Source: a virus
Length of the DNA: 64,000 nucleotides
Virus record (IMG/VR): IMGVR_UViG_3300023174_003073
Coordinates: 106,987-170,986 of that record
Strand: one strand, 5' to 3'
Position 1 is the stretch's first letter; every line of letters begins with the position of its first letter. The notes under the pieces were generated by a model. It saw only the letters and a program-made list of their open reading frames with translations, did not search any database and was not told where the DNA came from. Of this stretch, positions 6,486 through 64,000 are shown one piece after another. The translations under genes and the position numbers were made by a program.

Positions 6486-6652
6486 AGTTGTATTTATCAT
6501 TCTTGCAATGATAATGAGCAATTAGATTTTTTGTGGATTAGCCTAATATTTATCCCCGATGTGTGCGCTAAAAGTATACTATATTGCGCGGGCCGTTTGA
6601 CCTTAAATATACTTGAATGTTATGAGCATTCGGCTCTAAAAAGGAGAATATT

Positions 6653-61628: not shown

Positions 61629-61657
61629 ATTATATATGAGAATCCAATTACTGTCAA
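61629..61657 (-). promoter_or_regulatory. consensus sigma70 promoter TTGACA-17-TATAAT
   Basis: Exact consensus; spacer resembles that at 34774-34802. Confidence 0.85.
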
Positions 61658-61878
61658 GTTCTGGAACTAATCTGATCCAATTTTTCGTTAGACTCAAGTC
61701 GTGCTAAAACAACACCGTATATACCATATACCATTAAACCTACTAGGATAATACCACATGCATATTGCAATACGATAGTAGATGTGTAGAAAAGTATTAC
61801 ATTCAGTAACAGTGAACCACCTACAATACCTAGGACGATTGCGATAGTCTGATAAATTGCTTTTTCTTTAAGAGTCAT
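61654..61878 (-). CDS. small two-TM membrane protein
   Basis: Two hydrophobic helices; AAGGA SD; start trimmed to MTLKEK. Confidence 0.65.
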   Translation of the reverse strand: MTLKEKAIYQTIAIVLGIVGGSLLLNVILFYTSTIVLQYACGIILVGLMVYGIYGVVLARLESNEKLDQISSRT

Positions 61879-61907
61879 TTTTGTTCCTTTATTTAATTGA
61901 TACATGT

Positions 61908-61936
61908 ATTGTACACCCAAACGGATTTATTGTCAA
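61908..61936 (-). promoter_or_regulatory. sigma70-type promoter TTGACA-17-TACAAT
   Basis: Read directly. Confidence 0.75.
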
Positions 61937-62805
61937 ATATTTTCTAGTTTCCAATTTTTAACACTAAAGTATTCAAAATCATCACGTGACTTTTTATGAT
62001 ACAAACCTGCTATTTGCATTGGTTCATTCTTAGCAAAGAGTTTAGACCATATGTGTTCTAATGGATTTGATACATCAAGTACAAACTGCACTGCCATTTC
62101 TGTTTCAACATCTTTAAACCAATAGTGATGTGTTGTAGCACTTTTTCTTTTAGAAATTATTTTACTTAATGGTTTAAGTGTTCTAGGTAAACTAGAACCC
62201 ATTTGATGAAATGTTACATTTGATTTTGGATTAACCTGTACACGTACTTCATCTACCCCACTATCGTATTCATAGAAATATGGAAGATAGTAAATCATAC
62301 CCATCAAATCATTTTTGACCAGTAAAGGTGTTGGACTATGAATATATGTGTTCAATTCATCACGAAACTTTGAGAACCGAGCATTCTTAAGTTTCCATAT
62401 CATAATCTTCTTGCTATAGTAATCACGAATTTCTTGACCAAGTTCTCTATCCTCATCAGTCACATGCATGAATAATTCTTTACTGAGTAAGTTAGATACA
62501 CTGGCTACTGCTGATGGATTAGTCTTGTTCAATCTTTTCCAAGTAACACTTAGTGCAAGTACATCTTCTGGACTTTCATATACTTCGTATTTTTTAACAC
62601 CTTCATGGTATTTAGATGTTACACTGAGTTCATCCCATTGAATACCACTAGTCAACGAATTTGATAGGTTCAATCCTTGCAAATTTTGCAAAGTAATTGT
62701 AGATACTTGTCCTGATGACAACCCTGAAGCCACAGTGTATGTTGCTGGTCCTCCTGATCCGCCACCGGTTGTTTGATAAAGTCCTTTACCTCTGTATTGT
62801 GTCAT
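61933..62805 (-). CDS. hypothetical protein
   Basis: Start trimmed to MTQYRG; the upstream extension is antisense to the homing endonuclease. Confidence 0.65.
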   Translation of the reverse strand: MTQYRGKGLYQTTGGGSGGPATYTVASGLSSGQVSTITLQNLQGLNLSNSLTSGIQWDELSVTSKYHEGVKKYEVYESPEDVLALSVTWKRLNKTNPSAVASVSNLLSKELFMHVTDEDRELGQEIRDYYSKKIMIWKLKNARFSKFRDELNTYIHSPTPLLVKNDLMGMIYYLPYFYEYDSGVDEVRVQVNPKSNVTFHQMGSSLPRTLKPLSKIISKRKSATTHHYWFKDVETEMAVQFVLDVSNPLEHIWSKLFAKNEPMQIAGLYHKKSRDDFEYFSVKNWKLENI

Positions 62806-62833
62806 AATGATATGTCTTCCATTCCTGCTGTTC
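62802..62833 (-). pseudogene. relic of the original uvsY 3' end ((R)TAGMEDISL*)
   Basis: GA ACA GCA GGA ATG GAA GAC ATA TCA TTA TGA parallels the live uvsY end RSAGMEDITMG*. Confidence 0.8.
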
Positions 62834-62849
62834 AATGATAAATAAGTAT

Positions 62850-63494
62850 ATGATACACTATATTTACAAACTTGTACACACAAATGGGAGATATTATGTC
62901 GGTAGACATAGTACCAATAATATTGATGATGGATATATGGGTTCCGGAAAATGGCCTCGTAGTATAAAACATCAAGAAGGGCTGTCCAAAGAAATAATTG
63001 CGTATTGTAATTCATTTGATGAATTACTAATAGCAGAAAAAATATTGTTAACAGAGCATGTTGGCAAACCATTATGCATGAATTTTAACAATAATTCTGT
63101 AGGATTTGCAACCGGAGAGTTAAATCCAGCTAAATCAGAAAAAGAAAAAATTAGAAAATCAAAATTGAAGGGGACTCTTAGTCCAATGTTCAATAAATCT
63201 CATTCATTAGATGCTAAAAATAAAATGTCTGAGTCTAGGAAAGGAAAACCAACTTGGAATAAAGGACTGACTGATATCAAAACATCAAACAAAGGACAAC
63301 CTGCTTGGAACAAGGGAGTTCACACTGGACATCAATCATTTACCGGTAAATCTCATACCAATGAAAGTATTTTATTAATGAAAGAAAAGCATGCCAATCG
63401 TGAAAAATTAACATGCCCACACTGTAATAGAACTATTGACAAACCTAATTATACTAGATATCACGGTGATAAATGTAAATTTAACCCATTGTAA
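62850..63494 (+). mobile_element. free-standing GIY-YIG homing endonuclease (Seg-like, NUMOD3 repeats)
   Basis: YIYK...YYVGRH...DGYMGSG; NUMOD3-like F.KSH...K..MS..RKG twice; C-terminal CPHC..H..C; own late promoter GATAAATA at 62837-62844; opposite strand to neighbours. Confidence 0.85.
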
Positions 63495-63945
63495 TATCTT
63501 CCATACCAGCAGACCTTAAGCGAACTACATGGCCCAGCATAAAATTTTTAGACTCAAGACCCTTCATAATACCTAACCATCGATTGCGTAGTAAGGCCAC
63601 TTCATTGATTAGTGTTTCATAATCAATCACTTCATCTTCGCCATCAACATACTTTTCAGCATCACGACTGGTCAGTGCTCTATTATACGCTTCTAAATAC
63701 TTTTGAAAATGTTTTCGGCGAATTTTCCGAAGTTGAATATTGAGGTAGTTCAACACAGCCTCAATCTCTTGCAACTGATTGAACCTATGCTCAGTGGTAC
63801 CGGGTAATGCGGCAATGTTCTTTTCAACATTACCGTATATCTTTACATCATTTTTTGCTGAGTTTAACTCAGTTTGATAATACGATATAAAATCCGGTAT
63901 CACTGACAAATCATAAGTGATTCGTGTATACCAATTTTGTGACAT
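63481..63945 (-). CDS. uvsY: recombination mediator UvsY-like protein
   Basis: Helical 154 aa; Y...L...D...Y.DG...V...........K.L..K.F.L......R..G pattern; near uvsW. Confidence 0.7.
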   Translation of the reverse strand: MSQNWYTRITYDLSVIPDFISYYQTELNSAKNDVKIYGNVEKNIAALPGTTEHRFNQLQEIEAVLNYLNIQLRKIRRKHFQKYLEAYNRALTSRDAEKYVDGEDEVIDYETLINEVALLRNRWLGIMKGLESKNFMLGHVVRLRSAGMEDITMG

Positions 63946-64000
63946 TTAATTCCAATCTTCTGGATCGTGGTCTTCGTCTTCGTATTCTTCGTATTCTTCT
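63946..64000 (-). CDS. partial CDS, acidic C-terminus (...EEYEEYEDEDHDPEDWN*)
   Basis: Stop TAA directly before the uvsY ATG; runs off the window end. Confidence 0.55.
   Translation of the reverse strand, partial: EEYEEYEDEDHDPEDWN

Follow-up and report, generated by a model that had tools for sequence, protein, structure and literature searches.

Free-standing homing endonucleases of phage T4 spread by double-strand-break repair accompanied by co-conversion of the flanking DNA; they can lie antisense to their surroundings, as segD does, and a late promoter stands next to the open reading frame (ORF) in I-TevI and segB (PMC2988022). The review that describes these elements contains no description of a gene terminus that was replaced while a relic of the old one was retained (PMC2988022). 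Here, such an arrangement is described in a 64,000-nucleotide stretch of viral DNA (hereafter the window), which is the terminal 64 kb of the 171-kb IMG/VR record IMGVR_UViG_3300023174_003073 (estimated completeness 43%). A gene for a predicted GIY-YIG homing endonuclease lies between uvsY, which encodes a UvsY-like recombination mediator, and the next gene of the operon, here called dn. It is highly probable that a Seg-like cassette entered the uvsY/dn junction of an uncultured freshwater jumbo phage, supplied a foreign uvsY end and stranded the last ten codons of the resident gene.

The closest known parallels are the mobile ORFs (mORFs) of fungal mitochondria. An mORF that encodes an endonuclease has given atp6 of Allomyces macrogynus a foreign C-terminus (Paquin, Laforest and Lang 1994, cited in PMC3630166). 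In Glomus, mORF-borne foreign C-termini occur in atp6, atp9, cox2 and nad3, with the native C-terminal segment lying downstream and identical to that of an element-free relative (PMC3630166), and C-terminal duplications of atp6 and cob occur in Endoconidiophora (PMC6279837). The uvsY locus shares with these elements a divergent inserted C-terminus in frame with the host gene, an endonuclease ORF, and a native C-terminus left downstream. As in the mitochondrial cases, the native copy is identical or nearly so to that of an element-free relative while the inserted copy groups elsewhere (here 30/30 bases against 22/40, and 83% identity to another lineage). The differences are that the uvsY locus belongs to a phage genome, not an organelle, and that the endonuclease gene, which in the mitochondrial mORFs is on the same strand and often in phase, is here antisense and convergent, with a 14-nt overlap of the uvsY stop. 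In addition, the cassette has a putative late-type promoter of its own, the relic and the start of the following gene have kept their overlap, and the duplicated part comprises only ~10 codons.

With SegA-G of T4 the locus has in common an intergenic, free-standing GIY-YIG plus NUMOD3-type gene that is polymorphic in presence and has co-converted flanks; its antisense orientation is that of segD, and its predicted late promoter beside the ORF recalls I-TevI and segB. The T4 seg genes lie between genes or displace promoters, whereas here a gene terminus has been replaced and its relic kept; the host lineage consists of RaK2/PA5oct-related jumbo phages, not Tevenvirinae. A further comparison is offered by mobE, a free-standing HNH endonuclease gene inside nrdA of Aeromonas phage Aeh1, where nrdA is split into two functional pieces. 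As with mobE, the endonuclease gene has entered the coding sequence of a conserved gene of DNA metabolism that remains functional, but in uvsY the function would be kept via a replacement terminus, with no split of the gene, and the enzyme is of the GIY-YIG and not the HNH type. Text searches of the literature, which were not exhaustive, returned no phage example of an endonuclease-borne replacement terminus with a relic.

Results

A relic of the resident uvsY end lies beyond the endonuclease gene

The uvsY product matched phrog_231 'UvsY-like recombination mediator' (E 5.5e-15) and was 44-52% identical to the annotated UvsY-like genes of RaK2/K64-1, PA5oct-like phages, Vibrio phage 2.275.O and other jumbo phages; the Pfam UvsY model gave no match to it at E <= 0.01. 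A RecA_N gene lies two genes upstream of uvsY in the related loci L105 and L106 (loci are designated by L numbers throughout).

The live protein closes in RLRSAGMEDITMG and a stop codon. On the far side of the endonuclease gene, the minus strand from 62834 to 62802 reads TGA ACA GCA GGA ATG GAA GAC ATA TCA TTA TGA, and the final TGA (62804 to 62802) overlaps the start codon of dn (62805 to 62803) as ATGA. The live copy and this relic have 6/9 residues and 18/27 bases in common. The first-pass annotation had reported both uvsY ends and the ATGA overlap with the gene at 62805, and on re-reading its sequence and coordinates proved correct. It had also placed an Arg codon, in brackets, before the relic; this codon is TGA in the window, but a true Arg codon (AGA) is present in the sister locus L105.

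Megablast and blastn searches of positions 61900-64000 against GenBank phages gave no match, and relatives surfaced only at the protein level. From a uvsY-based scan of IMG/VR, the best 80 of at least 600 uvsY loci were taken, in which UvsY was 76-90% identical to that of the window. No endonuclease gene followed uvsY in any of the 79 of these loci that were readable past the uvsY stop, and three loci of cultured jumbo phages had no annotated endonuclease directly after uvsY. The uvsY ends of the 80 loci fell into two classes, one closing in I[TS]IG-stop or similar and the other, one residue shorter, in RTAGMED-x-x-[LIV]-stop. The shorter end was fused by ATGA to a dn homologue in L010, L022 and L034, and the terminus of L084 was exactly RTAGMEDISL-stop. 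Because dn in the loci fetched with uvsY was just 24-48% identical to dn of the window, dn itself was used as the query for the closest relatives.

Among these closer relatives, L102 and L103 (dn 86% identical) and L106 and L107 (dn 77% identical; L106 is on a 262-kb contig) were free of the endonuclease gene and carried a 153-aa uvsY with the end RTAGMEDISL-stop, overlapping dn by 4 nt. The uvsY terminus of these empty alleles reads RLRTAGMEDISL followed by a stop codon that is ATGA-fused to dn. This is the junction that the first-pass annotation had predicted for endonuclease-free relatives. The loci L100 and L101 (dn 90% identical) were also empty; the cut upstream ORF of L100 overlaps dn by 4 nt, and the contig of L101 starts inside the uvsY end, the bases present agreeing with L100. 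The relic (62831 to 62802) and the live uvsY end of L106 were identical at 30/30 positions, and L107 gave the same result.

A position-specific matrix was constructed from the C-terminal 8-mers of the 79 endonuclease-free relatives and run over ~128,000 six-frame positions of the window. The relic scored highest (31.7 bits) and the live end second (26.2 bits); no other site exceeded 0.26 bits. The relic is the original terminus of the resident uvsY.

The live uvsY carries a foreign 3' tract

Between the window and L106, the 5' part of uvsY (390 nt) was 91.5% identical, the 40 alignable nucleotides at 63555-63516 were 55% identical (22/40) and the relic was 100% identical. With L102 included, the corresponding values were 90-92% for the 5' part and 55-57% for the 40 nucleotides. 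Dense differences begin at 63553, where GLE-SKNFMLGHVVRLR of the window faces GLE-AKQWQMGHIVRLR of L106, and the breakpoint is near 63555, resolved to ~20 nt. The live 72-nt tract was 87.5% identical to that of the occupied (endonuclease-bearing) locus L105. It was 82-83% identical to the endonuclease-free L032 (83%) and L005 (82%), whose 5' parts were only 75-82% identical, and 59-62% identical to L106 and L102. The live uvsY end therefore comes from another lineage, and the live gene is a hybrid, in which the 5' ~390 nt are resident and the last ~24 codons are foreign.

The proposal of the first-pass annotation that the uvsY terminus had been replaced is supported insofar as the terminus is foreign (55% against 91.5%). 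Its starting point was misplaced: the tract begins not at the Arg codon but ~13 codons upstream, near 63555. The further suggestion of a synonymously 'recoded' end does not hold, as the amino acids themselves differ (SKNFML..V against AKQWQM..I) and the tract is a natural allele of another lineage. Both haplotypes, SKNFML and AKQWQM, are present among endonuclease-free and among occupied phages. A simple co-conversion signal, in which occupied alleles would be more alike in the 3' quarter of uvsY, was not found across distant occupied loci; the breakpoint is visible solely with the close set of empty and occupied alleles.

Residues 131-137 of UvsY (window 63516-63555; L005-L112 columns) are dimorphic, SKNFML or AKQWQ[ML], and the two forms have been reassorted against both the remainder of uvsY and the terminal class (G-stop or one residue shorter). 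Between L085 and L087, the first three quarters of uvsY are 88-94% identical and the last quarter only 69%.

Occupied loci share one junction

Ten distinct occupied loci were found, namely the window, L085, L086, L087 (identical to L088), L093, L105, L109, L110, L111 and L112; L110 and L112 showed no difference in the regions read. L105 (dn 80% identical, 261-kb contig) is laid out in the same way as the window and encodes an endonuclease 90% identical to that of the window. Homologues of the endonuclease that are 72-79% identical were present in L085-L088 (IMG/VR) and L109-L112 (metagenome contigs), where the gene is again antisense and lies between uvsY and a dn homologue. The left junction is the same in every occupied locus: the former Arg codon (TGA; AGA in L105) is followed by AC-, and GATAAATA starts 2 nt beyond.

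Relics stand at this same junction in L085-L088, L093, L105 and L109-L112, and their decay is uneven, with in-frame losses of 3 nt in L086 and of 6 nt in L085, L087, L093 and L110. In three lineages, the distal part of the relic, together with the dn start, corresponds to the empty allele of that lineage: window and L105 go with L106 and L107 (the ISL-stop/ATGA type), L109 matches L017 and L015 (the ITIG-stop/TTGGCTAA type), and L086 matches L032. The proximal 12 nt of the relics follow a cassette-wide consensus resembling TGA ACA GCA GGA. A proximal part shared by the cassettes and a distal part proper to each lineage suggest that a stub of target codons travels with the cassette. Alternatively, dn and the distal relic may have been swapped later by recombination at the same place.

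In L093 (2990-3140), residues 1-24 of the endonuclease are fused in frame to residues 199-217, which leaves a mini-ORF of ~45 codons between an intact uvsY (ending ITVN-stop) and the relic plus dn. This internally deleted copy represents decay as the life cycle of homing endonucleases predicts.

The endonuclease and its putative promoter

The product of the inserted gene matched phrog_314 'homing endonuclease' (E 2.9e-27) and, over two to three stretches, NUMOD3 (PF07460; E 2.9e-6; score 27.5 bits, cutoff 20.4). A tblastn search retrieved genes of T4-like phages that are annotated as Seg-like or GIY-YIG (28-33% identity, E 1e-10 to 5e-18); phmmer against PDB sequences returned nothing meaningful. 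In an alignment of 14 homologues, Y6 (the 'IY' of GIY), Y16 and G18 (the Y-V/I-G motif) and N78 were invariant, E63 was nearly so, and R20 was present in the close homologue group. A conserved C-x2-C...H-x3-C motif occupies residues 192-209.

The N-domain (residues 1-80) of an AlphaFold (AF2) model had predicted local distance difference test (pLDDT) values of 75-93. Its best structural match was the catalytic domain of I-TevI (1ln0_A; Z 7.0, root-mean-square deviation 3.3, 79/92 residues aligned), and the next were the GIY-YIG enzyme PD-T4-3, the UvrC GIY-YIG domain and UPF0213 (Foldseek probability 0.75-0.77). Sequence-level support, together with moderate support from the fold, points to a Seg-like GIY-YIG homing endonuclease. 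The ratio of nonsynonymous to synonymous substitution (dN/dS) in the gene was 0.07-0.15; it is therefore under purifying selection and functional. A search of the 171-kb record with the gene found no second copy.

The GATAAATA box is invariant in all occupied loci, and the spacer of 5-7 nt between it and a conserved ATG varies. This ATG is at 62850 in the window; an upstream ATG at 62835, which would give a 219-aa version, is out of frame in L111, and the ORF was therefore taken to start at 62850. In the window, the sequence [GT]ATAAATA occurs at 19 sites, 15 of which have an ATG within 35 nt that opens an ORF of at least 50 codons; at random positions judged in the same way, the count averaged 2.5 and did not exceed 8. 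The spacing of 4-5 nt to the ATG recurs at three other [GT]ATAAATA sites, which implies near-leaderless late mRNAs. It is plausible from this distribution and from the invariance of the box that GATAAATA is the endonuclease's own late promoter, from which a near-leaderless mRNA would be made. Examples of [GT]ATAAATA before gene starts elsewhere in the window are the sites at 6498, 11362, 34839 and 44416. A scan for sigma-70 promoters and terminators produced weak consensus matches only.

Presence and absence of the endonuclease among close relatives

The endonuclease is polymorphic in presence at this one locus among close relatives, with the flank co-conversion breakpoint near 63555. A tree was built on the 5' part of uvsY, the converted tract being excluded. 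This tree demands at least 5 changes of the endonuclease label; branches with good support dictate at least 3, and none of 500 label shuffles was as low (0/500). The window and L105 share a clade with 99% support with the endonuclease-free L103 and L107. A 'recent arrival' of the cassette, suggested by the pristine relic, was rejected on the synonymous divergence (dS) of the endonuclease between the window and L105, which is 0.46.

Gene arrangement and surroundings

The features of the locus are collected in Table 1. The final 14 nt of the endonuclease ORF (63481-63494) reach across the uvsY stop into its last four codons, the two genes being convergent.

Table 1. Positions of the uvsY, endonuclease and dn features in the 64-kb window
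Feature	Position	Strand	Remarks
Live uvsY, 154 aa	63945..63481	minus	UvsY-like recombination mediator; hybrid gene
Foreign (co-converted) uvsY 3' tract, encodes SKNFMLGHVVRLRSAGMEDITMG and stop	63481..63555	minus	allele comparison
Live copy of duplicated segment, RSAGMEDITMG (AGG TCT ... GGT)	63484..63516	minus	26.2 bits, UvsY C-terminus matrix
Putative Seg-like GIY-YIG/NUMOD3 homing endonuclease gene, free-standing, 214 aa	62850..63494	plus	antisense to operon
GATAAATA box, T4-late-promoter-like	62837..62844	plus	5 nt before endonuclease ATG 62850; begins 2 nt from relic
Relic of resident uvsY 3' end: former Arg codon (now TGA), TAGMEDISL, TGA stop	62802..62834	minus	top matrix match
Downstream gene dn, 290 aa	61933..62805	minus	without family match

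No Pfam or PHROG family matched dn. The gene after uvsY is hypervariable, with 24-48% identity among phages in which UvsY is 76-90% identical, and its N-terminus is Gly/Ser-rich. In K64-1 and in Vibrio phage 2.275.O, uvsY is followed by genes that are not homologous to dn, and an equivalence was rejected. Beyond dn, the window contains a membrane-looking ORF of 74 aa (61654-61878) with a weak match to a holin family (phrog_1299, E 0.006), and this is followed by a 354-aa AAA-type ATPase (phrog_1250).

Other genes are found around uvsY in some relatives. In L043 (4463-5035), a different, unannotated ORF of 190 aa lies between uvsY and dn, so the junction takes other inserts too. Behind uvsY in L033 (4393-5774) comes an ORF of 404 aa that carries a CxxxCxxC motif and resembles a radical-SAM enzyme; next are 56 aa that repeat the N-terminus of UvsY (78% identical) and, last, a secreted protein with a haem motif. 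The arrangement reflects either an assembly chimera or a further insertion that duplicated a gene end. In Pseudomonas phage vB_Pa-PAC2 (L002:663-2498), an annotated 'Hef-like homing endonuclease' separates the RecA-like gene from uvsY. Endonucleases may land repeatedly in the recombination gene cluster of jumbo phages.

Discussion

Proposed mechanism

In the order of endonuclease transcription, the mobile unit would consist of a 12-17 nt uvsY stub (R-T-A-G-M), the GATAAATA late-type promoter, the 214-aa ORF and ~72 nt of foreign uvsY 3' end, the last of which overlaps the end of the ORF on the other strand. The enzyme is predicted to cut endonuclease-free uvsY 3' ends and to spread by double-strand-break repair with co-conversion. 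A left crossover inside uvsY near 63555 would then give UvsY a foreign but functional C-terminus, and a right joint at the conserved R-T-A-G-M-E-D codons would leave the last ten resident codons behind, still overlapping the dn start as ATGA. The stub could provide the right-hand homology or an annealing site. Were the joint to resident DNA formed in the invariant A-G-M-E-D codons, the relic would be regenerated in each lineage, and it may persist by carrying the translation start region of dn.

A more specific form of this proposal is offered tentatively, and we regard it as rather unlikely: the cassette would be built to invade phages whose downstream gene is unrelated, with the 12-17 nt R-T-A-G-M-E-D stub as a portable right arm, a fresh relic made at each invasion, and the relic kept as a mini-ORF leader and perhaps also as an operator beside the endonuclease promoter. 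A homing-site-like operator is known for I-TevI.

Why the relic persists

The first-pass annotation described the relic as a fossil. This is correct in that it is the remnant of the original end (30/30 with L106); it may not be dead, as it contains the start region of dn and is in frame in every occupied lineage. The relic may instead have been kept or exapted as a translation leader for dn, a mini-ORF (MEDISL-stop in the window) that would preserve termination-reinitiation coupling or a ribosome site. This possibility is a serious one, to which we give somewhat less than an even chance; it is compatible with the insertion history and concerns only the reason why the relic persists. From the Met codon of the relic (TTG in L085), the frame is open in 9/9 distinct occupied lineages read, the relic region of L112 being that of L110. 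It reaches a stop overlapping the dn start in eight of these lineages and enters the dn ATG itself in L111. All relic deletions are multiples of 3, although only ~2-4 of them are independent events. GGAATGGA and the dn start are kept while other positions decay. The relics of the window and L105 and the corresponding end of L106 are 30/30 identical despite a dS of 0.3-0.46 in the flanking genes; five other patches of 100% identity exist among 50-nt windows between the 64-kb window and L105, however, so the 30/30 match alone is weak evidence. In addition, no good Shine-Dalgarno sequence lies at the usual distance before the mini-ORF ATG. This modest evidence suggests that the relic may be retained as a leader mini-ORF or translation-initiation region.

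Points against the proposed insertion, and alternative histories

Several observations weigh against the proposed insertion by a mobile homing endonuclease. The relatives compared are metagenomic contigs. The Pfam GIY-YIG model (PF01541) gave no match to the endonuclease even at E <= 10, and the GIY-YIG fold match of the N-domain, with Z < 8, is of moderate strength in a predicted model. Occupied alleles have either haplotype upstream of the repeat, and no nucleotide signature was apparent that would set occupied live ends apart from empty ends, as the cleavage resistance proposed in the first-pass annotation might. Between the window and L105, dS was 0.46 for the endonuclease and 0.37 for the 5' part of uvsY; the element is therefore old in the clade of these two loci, and L103, L106 and L107 may have inherited it vertically and then lost or replaced it.

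If the endonuclease were ancestral in this clade, the empty alleles L102/L103 and L106/L107 would be secondary, the cassette having been lost through recombination with phages free of the endonuclease. In the tree, the empty L103 and L107 do fall inside the clade of the window and L105 (99% support; inner node 91), and the endonuclease dS indicates long residence. However, the empty alleles have AKQWQM...ISL-stop and not the SKNFML tract of the cassette, so that simple deletion between the repeats cannot yield them. The relic itself proves an earlier endonuclease-free state of the same junction type, and the endonuclease is absent from most relatives and from the cultured jumbo phage loci read. 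An ancestral endonuclease, which would alter the polarity of recent events only and not the origin of the relic, is considered improbable.

Far less probable still is the view that the uvsY 3' end was duplicated in tandem at its own site, that the copies then diverged and that an endonuclease gene landed between them later. An imperfect direct repeat of ~30 nt (18/27 identical bases) does border the insert, as this would predict, but the divergence extends beyond the repeat: the 40 nt upstream of it share just 55% identity with the empty allele and match other lineages instead. Moreover, only the relic agrees fully (100%) with the empty allele; the live copy differs from it, as expected of foreign DNA. 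Chance resemblance of the relic peptide to the live uvsY end is refuted: although merely ten codons are concerned, the relic ranks first among the ~128,000 six-frame positions, with a margin of 31 bits over unrelated sites, L106 has the same sequence as its real uvsY end, and relics occur in nine other distinct occupied loci.

Implications

Under the favored account, the insertion of a Seg-like cassette, a single homing site is available in its occupied, empty and decayed states, which makes the locus a clean natural experiment in a phage, and the locus provides testable substrates for mapping a new GIY-YIG specificity. For annotation, the locus is a warning that short 'orphan' peptide echoes near endonuclease genes can mark insertion history and may hold the start signals of the next gene. 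On this account, the coding end of a conserved gene is open to a free-standing phage endonuclease that provides a substitute terminus, a strategy hitherto described for fungal mitochondrial mobile ORFs. The gene invaded encodes UvsY, the recombination mediator that T4 homing itself requires (PMC2988022). The insertion would also explain one source of mosaicism, the SKNFML/AKQWQM dimorphism and the hypervariable neighboring gene, in an abundant group of freshwater jumbo phages.

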